This document shows, in pieces, positions 2,046-9,606 of a DNA stretch of 10,564 nt (positions are counted from its first letter, which is position 1; each line of letters opens with the position of its first letter). Under the pieces are notes generated by a model that was given only the letters and a program-made list of their open reading frames with translations, was not told the DNA's origin and did not search any database. The stretch is from a virus, in the UHGV virus genome UHGV-1326494, one strand, 5' to 3'. Position numbers and translations under genes: made by a program.

Positions 2046-2887
2046 GCCGCATCATCAAAATTAAATCCAAGCTGACATGAAAATGCTTCACATGATTCAG
2101 AACACGAACCTGAATCATACTGTCGCATTGATGTCATTCTTGAGGCTAACTCATCTCTTGATATATCACTAAACAAGGCAATCAGTGATTTAAGTGTATT
2201 ATTCCCTCGATACATAACCGGTTCCTTTCCTGTTTTTATTTCTGTATCAAGGATGTTGATAAATGCATCTGCAAGTTCTGGCTCATCCATGGCTGCCAGC
2301 GCAACCTTTTGCATACTTTTTTTTATACAGAAAACACAATTACCAAGATGCTCCTGTATGCCAAGATCAAACTTCTGCCCACTCCACCAATCAAGCACAT
2401 CCTGTTTTTCAAAATCGCTTATATCAGCCAGGTACCGAAAACCATTAGCCCTTTTAAGCCTGTTTGGTTCATCTGTGCGAATGCCAAGCCATGTGATGTA
2501 ATTTCCTTTCCCAAACTTTTCCTGACAATATTTGGTGAATGGAACAGACTTCATTCTGTCGGTACAGAACGCACCGCCGATATATGGATGTCCGTATTTA
2601 TTTAACATCCTTTTCCACGGTATAAGATCTGGACCAATATCATTGACACCTATCTCTTCATAACTACTGGCCTTCCCCATTTCTGGATTAGGTATTACAC
2701 GAAGGCAATGTAAGTCTATTTTCCAGTTACTGACGATATTTCGGATGAACTCATATGTTTTAGGGTGCTCTGCCCCTGTATCCATGAAAACGTAATGCAC
2801 GTCTTCACCTGCCTGTCGCTTTTGCTCCATTAGCCAGAGCAAATATGCTGACGTCCTGCCACCTGAGAAACTAACGACATTTATCAT
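2042..2887 (-). CDS. ninC: NinC-like protein, PAPS-reductase / PP-loop ATP pyrophosphatase superfamily (281 aa from internal start)
   Basis: ORF track 311 aa; the first 30 codons overlap the upstream methyltransferase. The internal ATG at 2885-2887 ([17 protein letters not shown], SGGxxS PP-loop) forms an ATGA overlap with the methyltransferase stop. Confidence 0.8.
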
Positions 2888-3411
2888 GCAGCCCTCCTGA
2901 CACCCTGCCCGATCGCCATCAATGCCGCTTTGGATACGGTAGTAAACATCCGTCGAGGACTGATGAACGGTCGCCAAATCAGCAGCATGGAGCCTTTGCT
3001 GTTTCCCTTCTTCTCCAGCCCTGTCGATGGTTCGATAAAATTAATCCGTCCATCAGTGATAATGCGAACTTCGTCGACACTCTCCAGAGCCTTGCTGAAC
3101 CATCCGACTGACATATCCTCTGGCACAAGCATAACTACCGTCTGTCGCTGTTGTATGCACTGCTCAGCGGCTTTTTCCACCCACGGCCTGATATTGCTGT
3201 ACGGTGGGTTATTCCAGATTGCACCGTGGCTTACCCACTCAGAATTGAGCGCGTCGTCGGCCTCAGTTAGCCAGTGAGCACACAGAGCATTTTTGTCGCT
3301 CGCTGCCGAATCCAGCCAGAATCCAAACTCAATATCCAGTGCATCAAAAAGCCAGAGCGGCGTTTGCCAGCAGTCCTTGTCGTGTGCTGGCGTATTTGAT
3401 TTGATAGTCAT
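2884..3411 (-). CDS. Orphan DNA N6-adenine methyltransferase, phage Dam family (175 aa)
   Basis: Translation from ATG at 3409-3411: MTIKSNTPAHDKDCWQTPLWLFDAL...WLDSAASDKNA...WNNPPYS. The WQTP start, D-A-A motif and NPPY catalytic motif are characteristic of phage-type Dam methylases. ATGA overlap with the ninB stop. No restriction endonuclease partner is visible. Confidence 0.8.
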   Translation of the reverse strand: MTIKSNTPAHDKDCWQTPLWLFDALDIEFGFWLDSAASDKNALCAHWLTEADDALNSEWVSHGAIWNNPPYSNIRPWVEKAAEQCIQQRQTVVMLVPEDMSVGWFSKALESVDEVRIITDGRINFIEPSTGLEKKGNSKGSMLLIWRPFISPRRMFTTVSKAALMAIGQGVRRAA

Positions 3412-3848
3412 GCAGCCCGATCTCCCCATCGCGCTTTCCATTCGAGAGCCAGTCGCGCTTCGTCTGACCACTTAACGCCACGCTCTGTACCGAATGCCTG
3501 TATAAGCTCTAATAGCTCCGCAAATTCGCTTACACGCATCCTGCTGGTTGACTGGCCTATTACCACAAAGCCATTCCCGGCAAGGTTAGGAACAACATCC
3601 TGCTGCTTTAATGCTGCGGTAAACACACACTTCCAGCTTTCTGCATCCAGCCAGCGACCATGCCATTCAACCTGACGAGAGACGTCACCAAGGCAAGCCC
3701 AAAGCTTTCGATTCTGGTCTAAGCTGCGGTTGCGTTCCTGAATGGTTACTACGATTGGTTTGGTTGGGTCTGGAAGAATTTGCTGTACTGCGTGAATAGC
3801 GTTTTGCTGATGTGCTGGAGATCGAATTTCAAAGGTTAGTTTTTTCAT
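3408..3848 (-). CDS. ninB: NinB/Orf recombination mediator (146 aa)
   Basis: ORF track 152 aa; start chosen at ATG 3846-3848 (MKKLTFEIRSPAHQQNAIHAVQQILPDP...), which has a purine-rich RBS (GGGAGAGAGGGAAG) upstream. Length and sequence match my memory of lambda NinB. Confidence 0.85.
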   Translation of the reverse strand: MKKLTFEIRSPAHQQNAIHAVQQILPDPTKPIVVTIQERNRSLDQNRKLWACLGDVSRQVEWHGRWLDAESWKCVFTAALKQQDVVPNLAGNGFVVIGQSTSRMRVSEFAELLELIQAFGTERGVKWSDEARLALEWKARWGDRAA

Positions 3849-3921: not shown

Positions 3922-5298
3922 TCATACGTCAGCCCCTTGTGCATATCGTCTGCCACGCGCAGCAGGTGCATTTGATGCTGTGCAAATCTGTCTGGCTTCA
4001 TCCTGGTCACATGCAACAAAGTGTCCGTTGCAGAACCGCTGGTAAACCGTACCAAGTGAGCCAAAACGGTTTTTCGTCACGATGATTTCAGCAAATGGCG
4101 CGGCGCTACTGTTCTCGTCATATACCGCTTCCCGATAGAGCATGATGATTGAGTCTGCGTCCTGCTCAATGCTTCCTGAATCACGCAAATCTGCGTTTGT
4201 CGGGCGTTTGTTTGGTCGCTTCTCAACATCGCGCGAAAGCTGACTCAGGGAGATAACCGGTGTTTTCAGGTCTTTCGCCATCGCCTTCAGGCTTCCGGAG
4301 ATGTGAGCAATTGCGAGGTCGTTGCGGTCTGCTTTCGGCTTCTCAATCAGGCCAAGATAATCCGCCATGATGAGTGACAGGTTTGGATTTTCCTGTTTGT
4401 GCCGTTCTGCGATTGAGCGTATTTCTTCGACCGATAACCGCGAGGCATCGACTACCCATACATCCAAATCTGCAAGCTGACTCATGCCGTTAGCAACACG
4501 CGCCCAGCCTTCGTCATCCATCGATGCAGGATTTCGCAGCACGCTAACAGACATCCTCCCGGCGTTGGCAATGCTTCGCTCTGCAATCTGCAATGCGCTC
4601 ATTTCCATCGAGAAAATCAACACTCCGCGCCGGATGTCAGAACCAGGAATAACGCGGCTTGCAACGCCTTCGGCAATCTTCAGCGCCAGTTCGGTTTTCC
4701 CCATACCCGGACGAGCAGCGATAATCACCAGGTCTTCCGCGTTCATCCCTCCGGTGATGGCGTCAAGTTCTTCGATTCCGGTCTTCAGGGTATCTGATTC
4801 CTCTCCGTTCCTCAGACGCCTGTCAAGCGTGTCAGTGTAGTCAGTGATGATTTCCCCTAACCGTACAGGTTTAACCTCGTCACGGGGCTTTCTGATGACT
4901 GAAAGACGCTTTACAAGCTCGTCCATCGCCTGACTCGATGTATCGATGGTTCCGCTCTGAATTGGTTCACGCATTTCATCCATGATTTCCAGCACCAGAC
5001 GGCGGTGATAGTTATCCGCGACCATTCCGGCATATCCCTTCAGGTTTGCGGCACTCGGGCAGTTCTTACTGGTCATCAGGATTGACGTGAAATGCTCCTC
5101 TCCGCACGCCTCGGCAACCATCAGCGCGTCGATTAGGTTTCTGTTTCTCGCCTGCTTACGGATAACTTCGAAGGCTTTCCTGTAGAGCGGAATTGAAAAC
5201 GCTTCCGGCTCAAGCGTTGCCAGAACGTCACTGGCGGTTGGAGTTAATCCACCAATCAGCAGGCCACCGATAACGCTCGCTTCGATATCCTGTCTCAT
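3922..5298 (-). CDS. Replicative DNA helicase, DnaB family (458 aa; P22 gene 12-like)
   Basis: 458-aa ORF with a DnaB-like N-terminus ([12 protein letters not shown]), Walker [10 protein letters not shown] and a RecA-like C-terminal fold. ATGA overlap with the upstream O-like gene stop. Confidence 0.9.
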
Positions 5299-6116
5299 GC
5301 AATCCCCCTGTCTGCAAACTTCCCTTCCCGAACTCCCGTTAACGAATCTTCCCTCAGCAGGTAATCAAAATCGGCCGTCCAGCCAGTGTCGTTGTCTCCG
5401 AAGTAAAACGGCTTGGCCTGATGTACAAACGCCCTGACATACGCTCTGAAACCGTCCACGTTTGGCGTTTTCAGTTGCGGGATGATTTTCTTCAGGCGGC
5501 GTTTGCGTTTCTCGTTGACCGCAACAGCGTGTGGCAGTCTGTCACCGACTTCGGTGTTGTAGGCGTTCAGGAAGGATTCGTAGTCGATTCGTTCTGCCTT
5601 GCGACGTTCAGGTTTAACCTGCCCATCGCCGCCCCCGTTAGGGGGTAAGGGGGTATTTGTATTTATTGTCTTTTGTATATTGTCTTTTGTGTTTAGCTGA
5701 CTTGGCTTATACCCATTAGCCGACTCGGCTAATGTTTTATTAGCTGTTTTAGCTAATGTTAAGCTGTCCTGGCTAATCCACTGAGAAACCACCTTGTTCA
5801 CTCCGATTTTCACGCCATCAGCAATGAGGAATTTACGCTCGATAAGCTGGCGCTTGGCAGCGCAAACATGAGTGTGATGAATACCTGTCATGGCTGCTAT
5901 CTGCGTGTTTGTGAGTCGATCCATCGGCTTATTGAATCCGTATGTCTTGCGCATGATAGCGAGCATCACCTTCAACTGCCGGACGGTTAAATCAGCCATC
6001 AGCAGACTGTCGGTAATCTCGTTAGCAACGCGCATGAAACCATCTTCGGTATCTGCCACGCGATGCTCCACGACCTCCAGTTGAGGCCTGTAATCAGCTA
6101 ACTTAACGACGCCCAT
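5295..6116 (-). CDS. Replication initiator / replisome organizer, lambda O-like N-terminal domain (273 aa; P22 gene 18-like)
   Basis: N-terminus ([22 protein letters not shown]...) resembles the phage O-protein DNA-binding domain. The gene contains the iteron array and AT-rich tract expected of an embedded origin, plus a Gly/Pro linker encoded by a G-rich palindrome. Confidence 0.85.
5632..5776. repeat. Candidate origin of replication inside the O-like gene: four dyad-symmetric ~17-bp iterons plus an AT-rich tract and a G/C palindrome
   Basis: Iterons TTAGC-N7-GCTAA at 5693-5709 (TTAGCtgacttgGCTTA), 5716-5732 (TTAGCcgactcgGCTAA), 5740-5756 (TTAGCtgttttaGCTAA) and about 5760-5776 (tAAGCtgtcctgGCTAA), spaced 20-24 bp. 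Adjacent AT-rich tract 5651-5692 contains ttgtcttttgt twice. Palindrome ccccc-gtta-ggggg at 5632-5645. Confidence 0.6.
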
Positions 6117-6885: not shown

Positions 6886-6951
6886 ATTAAAGAACACTTA
6901 AATTATCCACTAAAGGAATCTTAAGTCAAGTTTATTTAAGATGTCTTAACT
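6886..6951. promoter_or_regulatory. OR region: three 18-bp operators of P22 c2 type between cro and the repressor gene
   Basis: Sites matching AnTnAAG-N4-CTTnAnT: 6886-6903 attaaagaacacttaaat, 6909-6926 actaaaggaatcttaagt, 6934-6951 atttaagatgtcttaact. Centre-to-centre spacing is 23 and 25 bp. The repressor ATG at 6952 has no Shine-Dalgarno, consistent with a leaderless PRM transcript. Confidence 0.7.
6902..6929 (-). promoter_or_regulatory. PR promoter for cro
   Basis: On the minus strand: -35 TTGACT (complement of 6924-6929), 16-bp spacer, -10 GATAAT (complement of 6902-6907). It overlaps operators 1 and 2 and lies about 30 nt upstream of the cro ATG. Confidence 0.6.
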
Positions 6952-7602
6952 ATGAAAACTCAATTGATGGGAGAGCGCATTCGCGCTCGGAGAAAAGAAC
7001 TCAAGATCAGGCAGGCCGCACTTGGAAAGATGGTCGGCGTGTCTAATGTTGCCATATCTCAGTGGGAACGCTCTGAGACAGAGCCAAATGGAGAGAATCT
7101 TCTCGCCCTGGCTAATGCGTTGAAGTGTTCCCCTGACTATCTGATGAAAGGAGAGGAAAGTCTTTCAAACATTGCCTATCACAGTAGGCATGATCCAAGA
7201 GGGTCATACCCTCTGATTAGCTGGGTGAGCGCAGGATGCTGGATGGAAGCTGTAGAACCATATCATAAGCGTGCAATAGATAACTGGTACGATACAACCG
7301 TAGACTGTTCAGAAGATTCGTTTTGGTTGGACGTGAAGGGAGACTCAATGACGGCTCCGGCCGGTCTCAGTATCCCTGAAGGAATGATAATACTCGTCGA
7401 TCCTGAAGTAGAGCCGCGTAACGGGAAACTGGTAGTTGCAAAGCTCGAAGGAGAAAACGAGGCAACTTTCAAGAAGTTAGTTATTGATGCAGGCAGGAAG
7501 TTTCTAAAACCACTTAACCCACAATATCCGATGATCGAGATCAACGGAAACTGCAAAATCATCGGCGTAGTTGTCGATGCAAAACTAGCAAACCTTCCAT
7601 AA
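6952..7602 (+). CDS. c2: Prophage repressor, P22 c2 / lambda cI family (216 aa) with HTH N-domain and LexA-like autocleaving C-domain
   Basis: ORF track 216 aa. N-terminal HTH (QAALGKMVGVSNVAISQWERSE) and C-terminal S24 peptidase-like domain (AG cleavage region, VKGDSM serine motif, a K near the C-terminus). Length matches P22 c2. Confidence 0.9.
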   Translation: MKTQLMGERIRARRKELKIRQAALGKMVGVSNVAISQWERSETEPNGENLLALANALKCSPDYLMKGEESLSNIAYHSRHDPRGSYPLISWVSAGCWMEAVEPYHKRAIDNWYDTTVDCSEDSFWLDVKGDSMTAPAGLSIPEGMIILVDPEVEPRNGKLVVAKLEGENEATFKKLVIDAGRKFLKPLNPQYPMIEINGNCKIIGVVVDAKLANLP

Positions 7603-7649: not shown

Positions 7650-7722
7650 ACTTAAGTTACGAAAGAAAATTTAAGTTTTCTTCAAAAATACTCTTGACCA
7701 TTAATTAAAGAGATCTTAAATT
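7650..7722 (+). promoter_or_regulatory. OL/PL region: PL promoter with an embedded operator
   Basis: -35 TTGACC (7694-7699), 17-bp spacer, -10 TAAATT (7717-7722). Operator-like site attaaagagatcttaaat (7703-7720) sits in the spacer. Further TTAAG/CTTAA half-sites at 7650-7680 are candidate extra operators. Confidence 0.6.
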
Positions 7723-7767
7723 TAAGCCATCAGCAGGACGCTGGTAGCCAAACGGAACAGATTGGCA

Positions 7768-8435: not shown

Positions 8436-8975
8436 CTAAATTAGCTCATCAGCTTTACCAGCAAAGCGCATATAACACTCATGGAACCAGACGTCAGGTA
8501 TAACAAATTTCTCTTTACCTGACGCGCTGTAAGTCACACCTGAGCGATGGAGAAGGCCTTTTCTCATAAGAGATAAAGCGACCGGATCGCCGTGCTTAAG
8601 TACGATTTTGTTATTTGCCATAACAGCAAATGCTAAAACCTCTTTTTCCTGAATACTCAGAGAATTGAATAGGCGCTCAGTCTCCACAATTACTTTAGCC
8701 TCATCTATCTTACTGAGATATTTTTTATATCTGTCTGAAGATGCCAGAAATATAAACTCCACCCCCCTGTTCAGAACATAACTGATACACAAAAGCATTG
8801 CGTAATACATCCAGTGATCTGGAAGTATTTCGGGGTTCCTTATATCTACCCACTCTTTAATTGATGCTGGGGTGATTATTATCAAGGTAATTAAAATAAT
8901 AAGCATATGAATTAACTGTTGTAGCGTAAGACCACGCAGGAAGAAACGTAATAGTTCCTGCCACCAGTTACTCAT
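8436..8975 (-). CDS. Membrane protein antisense to the PL operon (179 aa); superinfection-exclusion SieB-like by position and architecture, family not confirmed
   Basis: ORF track 179 aa. GGAG about 8 nt upstream of the ATG at 8973-8975. Two predicted TM segments (LIHMLIILITLIIIT and WMYYAMLLCISYVL) followed by a soluble domain. The gene is visibly AT-rich compared with its neighbours and is convergent with the N-like gene. Confidence 0.65.
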   Translation of the reverse strand: MSNWWQELLRFFLRGLTLQQLIHMLIILITLIIITPASIKEWVDIRNPEILPDHWMYYAMLLCISYVLNRGVEFIFLASSDRYKKYLSKIDEAKVIVETERLFNSLSIQEKEVLAFAVMANNKIVLKHGDPVALSLMRKGLLHRSGVTYSASGKEKFVIPDVWFHECYMRFAGKADELI

Positions 8976-8995
8976 CGGTGAATCTCCATCATTCT

Positions 8996-9043
8996 CTCTG
9001 TAGGGGTGAATAGAGTTTATCCGATTTCTCGCTGTAGGGGTAC
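8996..9043. repeat. Direct repeat pair upstream of the antisense membrane-protein gene
   Basis: ctgtaggggt at 8998-9007 and again at 9032-9041, 34 bp apart. Extended match tcNctgtaggggt. Confidence 0.5.
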
Positions 9044-9237
9044 ACGAGAACCACCGAGCCTGATGTGGTTAAAAGACAGGCATACGAATAAACACTGCAC
9101 TGTGTATTCATTCCAACGAGTGAATACACGGAGCAATGTCGCTCGTAACTAAACAGGAGCCGACTTGTTCTGATTATTGGAAATCTTCTTTGCCCTCTAA
9201 TGTGAGGACGATTTTTTATCTGTGAGGATATGAACAG

Positions 9238-9606
9238 ATGTCAAACATCAAAAAATACATCATTGATTACGACTGGAAAGCATCAATAGAAATTGAAATC
9301 GACCATGACGTAATGACAGAGGAAAAACTTCACCAGATTAATAATTTCTGGTCAGACTCTGAATACCGACTCAATAAACACGGCTCTGTATTAAATGCTG
9401 TATTAATCATGCTGGCGCAACATGCTCTGCTTATAGCAATTTCAAGCGACTTAAATGCATATGGTGTTGTGTGTGAGTTCGACTGGAATGATGGAAATGG
9501 TCAGGAAGGATGGCCTCCAATGAATGGTAGCGAAGGAATAAGAATTACCGATATCGACACATCTGGAATATTTGATTCAGATGATATGACTATCAAAGCC
9601 GCCTGA
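9238..9606 (+). CDS. ea10: Ea10-like protein (122 aa)
   Basis: ORF track 122 aa with GAGGA upstream. AT-rich. Position between the N region and cIII, and the length, match lambda ea10. The identity is from memory and position, not a search. Confidence 0.6.
   Translation: MSNIKKYIIDYDWKASIEIEIDHDVMTEEKLHQINNFWSDSEYRLNKHGSVLNAVLIMLAQHALLIAISSDLNAYGVVCEFDWNDGNGQEGWPPMNGSEGIRITDIDTSGIFDSDDMTIKAA

Follow-up and report, generated by a model that had tools for sequence, protein, structure and literature searches.

A probable theta-type replication origin of the HK97 allele inside the O-like initiator gene of a lambdoid phage sequence

The segment at positions 5632-5776 of the DNA analysed here (the window, a stretch of 10,564 nucleotides of the UHGV virus genome UHGV-1326494) is in all probability the theta-type origin of replication of a lambdoid phage or prophage, carried in the part of its own initiator gene that codes for the linker, in the allele found in HK97 and in many Stx and Salmonella phages; we put the probability of this reading at about 0.9. 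It needs to be said that this kind of element is already known: it is an ordinary lambda-like phage origin, placed within the gene of its initiator just as those of lambda, P22 and HK97 are, and the current understanding of how such origins work is left unchanged. What is gained is a correct annotation of the origin belonging to a replication module often found in Escherichia coli and Salmonella prophages, Shiga-toxin phages included. The correlation between helix motif and half-site, together with the catalogue of iteron families described below, is what we add here, and its value is small.

The gene that harbours the segment (5295-6116, minus strand, 273 aa) was recognized from its open reading frame, translation and Pfam match as an O-like replication initiator, the Phage_rep_O profile covering aa 19-113 with an E value of 5.8e-33. 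Its DNA is 99.9% identical to that of phage HZ41 and 98.8% identical to gene O (gp54) of HK97, and identities between 98.3 and 99.9% were found over the group formed by HZ41, HK446, HK544, Nil2, the Stx2 phages 1717 and 2851, and many Salmonella P22-like phages. Taken over its full length, the window has a mosaic make-up drawn from phages such as HK97, HZ41, Nil2 and Stx phages. The genes upstream of O are a small orf, cII, a cro of the P22 type and a cI-like repressor gene that is divergently oriented; downstream, the start of a gene for a DnaB-like replicative helicase (3922-5298, minus strand, 458 aa; Pfam DnaB_C, E 1.1e-77, and DnaB, E 4.5e-13) overlaps the O stop codon. The resulting order is cI / cro / cII / orf / O / helicase, of which the part from cI to O is arranged as in lambda and P22, and beyond O and the helicase follow NinB, a DNA methyltransferase, a PAPS-reductase-like gene and NinG. 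We recognize in this gene set the early-right operon of a phage or prophage of the lambdoid kind. A putative pR-like promoter, TTGACT-16-GATAAT, located between cI and cro (6902-6929, minus strand), would read through cro, cII, O and the origin; it comes from a consensus scan only, and sites of this kind are no more frequent in the window than in shuffled sequences. As a separate observation, the PAPS-reductase-like gene (2042-2977) and the DNA methyltransferase gene (2884-3471) of the nin region, both on the minus strand, overlap by about 90 bp as listed open reading frames.

Within the 10.5-kb window, the pattern TTAGC-N7-GCTAA with at most one mismatch occurs at four sites, all of them in 5693-5776, while the chance expectation is 0.27 and four sites were reached in none of 200 shuffles. 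The first-pass annotation had counted four such iterons; four sites are indeed present, yet only two of them are perfect, the other two having one mismatch each. In the gene's direction, iteron 1 (TTAGCCAGGACAGCTTA, 5760-5776) has one mismatch in its right arm, iteron 2 (TTAGCTAAAACAGCTAA, 5740-5756) and iteron 3 (TTAGCCGAGTCGGCTAA, 5716-5732) have perfect arms, and iteron 4 (TAAGCCAAGTCAGCTAA, 5693-5709) has one mismatch in its left arm and ends 1 bp from the conserved box of the A+T-rich tract. Measured from that box, their centres stand at -77, -57, -33 and -10, respectively, the first of these being the place of iteron 1 in lambda, in P22 and in four other iteron families as well. Start-to-start spacing is 23, 24 and 20 bp on the plus strand, that is 20/24/23 in the direction of the gene, which agrees with the 20-24 bp proposed earlier. 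The iterons occupy codons 114-142 of O and the A+T-rich tract codons 142-154, so that both fall in the stretch between the codons of the DNA-binding domain and those of the C-terminal domain.

The tract that follows the iterons (5655-5692, 38 bp, 79% A+T, strongly A-rich on the sense strand) is presumed to be the unwinding element, and it forms the G+C minimum of gene O (25% at 5660-5699). A tract of 40 bp with an internal repeat had been anticipated: the repeat is real, TTGTCTTTTGT being found at 5666-5676 and again at 5680-5690, but the length is 38 bp. Read in the gene's direction, the tract has two copies of TATTGTCTTTTGT. Its conserved box, CACAAAAGACA-N4-ACAAAAGA, runs from 5691 down to 5669 and is common to lambda and P22, and the distance of 1 bp between iteron 4 and CACAAAAGACA is likewise the one seen in these two phages.

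Comparison with lambda supports the earlier view of a lambda-type architecture built on a different iteron sequence. In lambda, four dyad iterons are followed by CACAAAAGACA...ACAAAAGA and an A+T-rich tract of about 40 bp inside an O-family gene transcribed from pR (PMC5043065, PMC3349717), and iterons, box, tract and gene have the same layout in the window, where the pR-like promoter is a putative one. The annotated lambda iterons start at 39034, 39054, 39078 and 39101, which gives the spacing 20/24/23 that we find in the window, and a gapless alignment of the window, HK97, P22 and lambda extends over the four iterons and the start of the tract with its box. The differences are these: lambda iterons are TCCCTC-N6-GAGGGA of 18-19 bp, with TCCCTC arms in place of TTAGC, the C-terminal domain of lambda O is unrelated, its partner P is a loader of the host DnaB whereas the partner in the window is a phage DnaB-like helicase, and the palindrome downstream of the lambda tract has another sequence.

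In the P22 record OQ031658, a rep_origin feature at 32840-32984, inside gene 18, is labelled 'bi-directional replication origin similar to phage lambda', and its limits are the opening base of iteron 1 and the final G of the palindrome CCCCC-TAAA-GGGGG. Because it spans exactly these two landmarks, window 5632-5776 is homologous to it from end to end. In P22, too, the origin occupies this place in the gene and has four dyad iterons with matching centres, and its initiator has a related C-terminal domain and a helicase of the DnaB type as partner; gene 18 has been described as bearing four repeats of about 20 bp, unlike those of lambda (PMC8022706). The two sequences share DNA only over window 5607-5700 (A+T-rich tract, linker and C/G palindrome), at about 90% identity. 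The N-terminal domains are some 45% identical, with MAPTKC in P22 against IHHTHV in the window at the start of the recognition helix, and the P22 iterons are TTACC-N5-GGTAA as opposed to TTAGC-N7-GCTAA, so the window does not carry the P22 origin allele. It carries that of HK97, Nil2, the Stx2 phages 1717 and 2851, HK446, HK544 and many Salmonella P22-like phages, which have the same four iterons, A+T-rich tract and palindrome, and the same DnaB-like helicase downstream; the difference is one spacer base of iteron 3 (5726). The HK97 and Nil2 records annotate no origin feature. Our literature searches found no accessible paper describing iterons of the HK97 type, the HK97 genome paper not being among the texts covered.

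The base at 5726, read in the gene's direction, is G in the window but A in HK97 and most alleles, so that residue 131 is E instead of K and iteron 3 is a perfect palindrome (8+1+8); the same change was seen in one viral contig (L074). On the plus strand, 5714-5734 reads as the iteron 3 hairpin followed by TTTTATT and thus looks like an intrinsic terminator antisense to gene O, an appearance that may be a mere consequence of a dyad standing beside an A+T spacer.

One could suppose that the repeats have no function as DNA and are a by-product of a repetitive, low-complexity peptide linker. The region does code for such a linker, and iterons 2 and 3, which are in the same codon phase, both give L-A-x-x-A-N (LAKTAN and LAESAN). 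Iterons 1 and 4, on the other hand, lie in other phases (the four phases are 2, 1, 1 and 3) and encode I-S-Q-D-S-L and K-P-S-Q-L-N, and the same spacing is kept in lambda and P22 despite unrelated linker peptides. Conservation speaks in the same sense: over nine lineages, for which the iteron consensus is TTAGCCAAGTCAGCTAA, 33 of the 40 positions in the arms do not vary, compared with 4 of 28 in the spacers (6 of 17 between the iterons), so the arms are conserved while the spacers drift. Among 13 close alleles, 40 of the 822 positions vary, none of them in the arms or the A+T-rich tract, and the three variable sites of the origin core are all in spacers; about 3.8 changes would be expected in arms and tract together and none was seen, a difference that is only weakly significant. 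As the arms are kept while the spacers drift, and as the iterons occupy three codon phases, it is the DNA rather than the peptide that is conserved, and selection, as judged from this pattern, acts on the DNA of the repeats. We thus consider the peptide by-product explanation highly improbable.

The iterons also belong to a much wider pattern. A scan of viral contigs for the box CACAAAAGACA-N3-6-ACAAAAGA gave 120 loci, and in all of them, save a few chance matches and truncated or rearranged loci, the box sits in an O-family gene after four dyad repeats. The repeats fall into at least seven families. In six of these the dyad centres stand at about -77, -57, -33 and -10: two families agree exactly, those of P22 and lambda deviate by no more than 0.5 bp, and in the two others iteron 1 is displaced by 1-2 bp. 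When the viral contig loci were taken together with the window and with loci fetched earlier (126 matches), the most frequent family was TTACC-N7-GGTAA (43 matches), followed by the lambda type TCCCTC..GAGGGA (33), TTAGC-N7-GCTAA, the window included (22), GTCAC-N7-GTGAC (10), the P22 type TTACC-N5-GGTAA (8), TTTAC-N7-GTAAA (3) and GTTAC-N7-GTAAC (1). The window allele is thus one common member of a well-populated and highly regular family. Two viral contigs may be mentioned for their initiators: in L054 an otherwise HK97-type O protein contains a 24-aa internal duplication in its N-terminal domain, and in L091 some 100 aa are inserted between the winged-helix domain and the iterons.

The part of the protein expected to read these repeats is the N-terminal origin-binding domain (aa 19-113, 5778-6062, minus strand), a predicted winged helix according to Pfam and an AlphaFold2 model. 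The model, built from 19 sequences (pLDDT 80.4; a run on the single sequence was poor, with pLDDT 42), has helices at residues 45-61, 70-77 and 81-93 and a beta hairpin at 97-106, which is winged-helix topology. Codons 80-93 (5838-5879, minus strand) would form the recognition helix, starting with H80-H81-T82-H83. In a Foldseek search of the PDB, the best matches were all winged-helix dimeric regulators (MarR, CRP/FNR, IclR), with weak E values of 5e-3 to 3e-2, and we used them for the fold class and not for homology. PDB sequence searches with the O protein and with a profile of 15 N-terminal domains returned no meaningful match and no solved O structure. As the Foldseek matches are weak and the sequence searches found no structure of an O protein, the placement of HHTH in the recognition helix rests on the predicted model.

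The comparison of iterons between related initiators, which the first-pass annotation had proposed as a check, was run, and the half-sites were found to co-vary with the start of this predicted helix. In the alignment of N-terminal domains each iteron family has residues of its own there: LPVKRCNEAK goes with the lambda iterons, LPRQKVNxAK with the GTCAC type, ILPHKCSAAK with TTACC-N7 and MAPTKCSTAK with the P22 iterons. TTAGC iterons are accompanied by IHHTHV on the backbone shared by HK97 and the window, and by KHHTHCSTAK on a second, P22-like backbone, whose identity to the window domain is 40-52%, that is, no closer than that of P22 (45%) or of the TTACC-N7 proteins (46%). The pairing of HHTH with TTAGC was seen in the window and in loci L009, L021, L032, L041, L099, L112 and L128-L131. 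A protein search yielded further relatives, 45-67% identical, with IHHTHVC, and the four of them whose DNA was retrieved, at 45-60% identity (from Enterobacter kobei, Pantoea agglomerans and two metagenomes), all have TTAGC-N7-GCTAA at 20/24/23 directly before CACAAAAGA.

From this co-variation, which covers seven families and two backbones, we infer that the initiator binds the iterons. One may go a step further and propose that the start of the O-type recognition helix is a readable specificity code for the half-site, with HHTH (residues 80-83) specifying TTAGC, a pairing that recurs on two backbones only 40-52% identical; we see the arguments for and against such a code as evenly balanced. 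If it is true, the origin specificity, and with it the replication compatibility of lambdoid prophages, would be predictable from sequence, and the specificity could be re-engineered by swapping four residues and the iteron arms.

It might still be argued that the dyad sites are operators for another DNA-binding protein, such as a repressor, CII, DnaA or a host factor, since dyad-symmetric 17-mers are typical operators. What the half-site follows, however, are the recognition-helix residues of the initiator rather than the immunity genes: one and the same O allele stands beside cI/cro/cII sets that differ between HK97, Nil2 and the window, and two of the loci with the HHTH and TTAGC pairing (L129 and L131) have YdaS-type genes next to it. 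As to DnaA, no box (TTWTNCACA) was found within or near the origin, and the single match in the whole window, at 1853-1861, is at chance level. The operator explanation therefore seems to us to have very little to recommend it, and the sites are better taken as presumed binding sites of the initiator itself. For lack of a DnaA box cluster beside the unwinding element, we also rejected a DnaA-dependent (oriC-like) origin.

Theta plasmid origins of the RepA, pi and TrfA types were considered as well, as they too have an array of initiator-specific repeats beside an A+T-rich unwinding element (PMC5043065). In plasmids the initiator binds as monomers to iterons that are direct repeats, while lambda iterons are inverted repeats that bind dimers of O (PMC5043065). 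The sites in the window are inverted repeats (5+7+5) inside the initiator gene, and a plasmid-type iteron origin was therefore rejected. As these are inverted repeats of the lambda kind located in the initiator gene, binding by dimers is the mode that we expect here.

The C-terminal domain of the initiator (5295-5631, minus strand) is presumed, from co-occurrence, to recruit the phage helicase. Of 26 loci with a C-terminal domain of the window type, 23 also have a DnaB-like helicase gene, as compared to 4 of 85 loci with other C-termini; in the three exceptions the helicase match is absent or partial in the available locus DNA, and at least two of these loci stop at a contig end. The pairing of this domain with a phage DnaB-like helicase, and not with a loader of the lambda P type, is a known trait of the P22/HK97 subtype and places the window there. 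Natural mosaics separate the two halves of the protein. Phage BTP1 has the P22 N-terminal domain and iterons joined to a C-terminal domain of the window type, and in Kapi1 and many Stx2a phages the same C-terminal domain follows an unrelated N-terminal part, the joints lying at the A+T-rich tract and the linker. From these joints and the co-occurrence counts it appears that the N-terminal domain travels with the iterons and the C-terminal domain with the helicase. Two particular loci may be described here. In phage Kapi1 (L005, MT813197), the gene at 1201-2423, annotated 'replication protein O', has a non-O N-terminal part fused at the Pro/Gly linker to the window-type C-terminal domain, and a small, distinct ORF with the annotation Phage_rep_O-like lies upstream of it. 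In a Pantoea agglomerans chromosome (CP016889, L131), an O-like gene at 1501-1971 stops in the C-run right after the A+T-rich tract (…NKNTP*), so that this prophage keeps the DNA-binding domain and the iterons with no in-frame C-terminal domain.

These data fit a mechanism of the lambda kind. In lambda, O dimers bind the inverted-repeat iterons, and the complex, on supercoiled DNA, opens the adjacent A+T-rich tract (PMC5043065, PMC7466680, PMC3349717). By analogy, dimers of the O-like protein would bind the four dyad iterons of the window through their N-terminal winged-helix domain, the recognition helix start HHTH reading the TTAGC half-site. The resulting nucleoprotein complex, on supercoiled DNA and aided by transcription from pR, would then melt the adjacent 38-bp A+T tract, and the C-terminal domain of O would recruit the phage's own DnaB-like helicase, encoded at 3922-5298, instead of a loader of the lambda P type, upon which the origin could fire. 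The location of the origin inside the O-like gene, as first proposed, is well borne out by the Phage_rep_O match, the lambda-type spacing, the shared A+T box and the end-to-end homology to the P22 rep_origin. The catalogues that pair iteron family with helix motif, and C-terminal domain with helicase type, could be used to predict which co-resident lambdoid prophages share an initiator specificity; they could also guide the design of mini-replicons and indicate what DNA structures may be visible to defence systems that sense origins.

At the far end of the segment, in the gene's direction, lies a block of C- and G-runs (5632-5655) that codes for the linker P-L-P-P-N-G-G. It consists of a tandem TACCCCCT TACCCCCT (on the plus strand, two copies of AGGGGGTA, 5640-5655), which comes first in the gene's direction, and of the palindrome CCCCC-GTTA-GGGGG (5632-5645). 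The latter encodes P158-P159-N160-G161-G162 of the O-like protein, and its role in coding for the Pro/Gly linker was thus rightly predicted. The further idea that it is a functional DNA structure of the origin, for instance a G+C clamp or a cruciform that limits or positions unwinding, and not merely Pro/Gly coding, has several points in its favour. The palindrome falls within the rep_origin feature of the P22 record, and in lambda the centre of an imperfect palindrome lies at +49.5 from the box, near the +52.5 of the window. Diverged relatives have C-run/G-run dyads with other loops (CCCCC-AA-GGGGG in L128, CCCCCC-A-GGGGG in L129, CCCCCC-A-GGGGGG in L131), and the dyad is predicted to form a hairpin in single-stranded DNA. 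Its C-runs use CCC, the rarest proline codon of the window genes (7 of 83), two of the seven being here. Yet the outer pair of the palindrome is broken without compensation in natural alleles (GGGGA in Nil2, GGGGT in L094), in a large class of alleles the two C-runs are not accompanied by a G-run, and the lambda origin as defined in PMC3349717 (39034-39160) ends before the lambda palindrome. Perfect stems downstream of the A+T-rich tract were compared with control windows of the same genes in a crude test on non-independent sequences, and the enrichment was weak (mean 4.6 against 4.1 bp; stems of at least 5 bp in 39% against 28%). Because this enrichment is weak, we do not claim a function for the palindrome, and a structural role strikes us as rather unlikely.

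Some features elsewhere in the window may be recorded as well. An Rfam scan of the window gave no match. An inverted repeat with 19-nt arms (84%) and 19 nt between them lies at 7667-7723, a short way downstream of the end of the cI-like gene at 7602. In the gap between a sieB-like gene (8436-8975, minus strand) and an orf at 9238-9606, the direct repeat TTCTC(T/G)CTGTAGGGGT occurs at 8992-9007 and 9026-9041, the copies being 34 bp apart. Upstream of the same orf, which belongs to PHROG 646 (function unknown), a second inverted repeat, at 9092-9139, has 22-nt arms that are 82% complementary and a loop of 4 nt.
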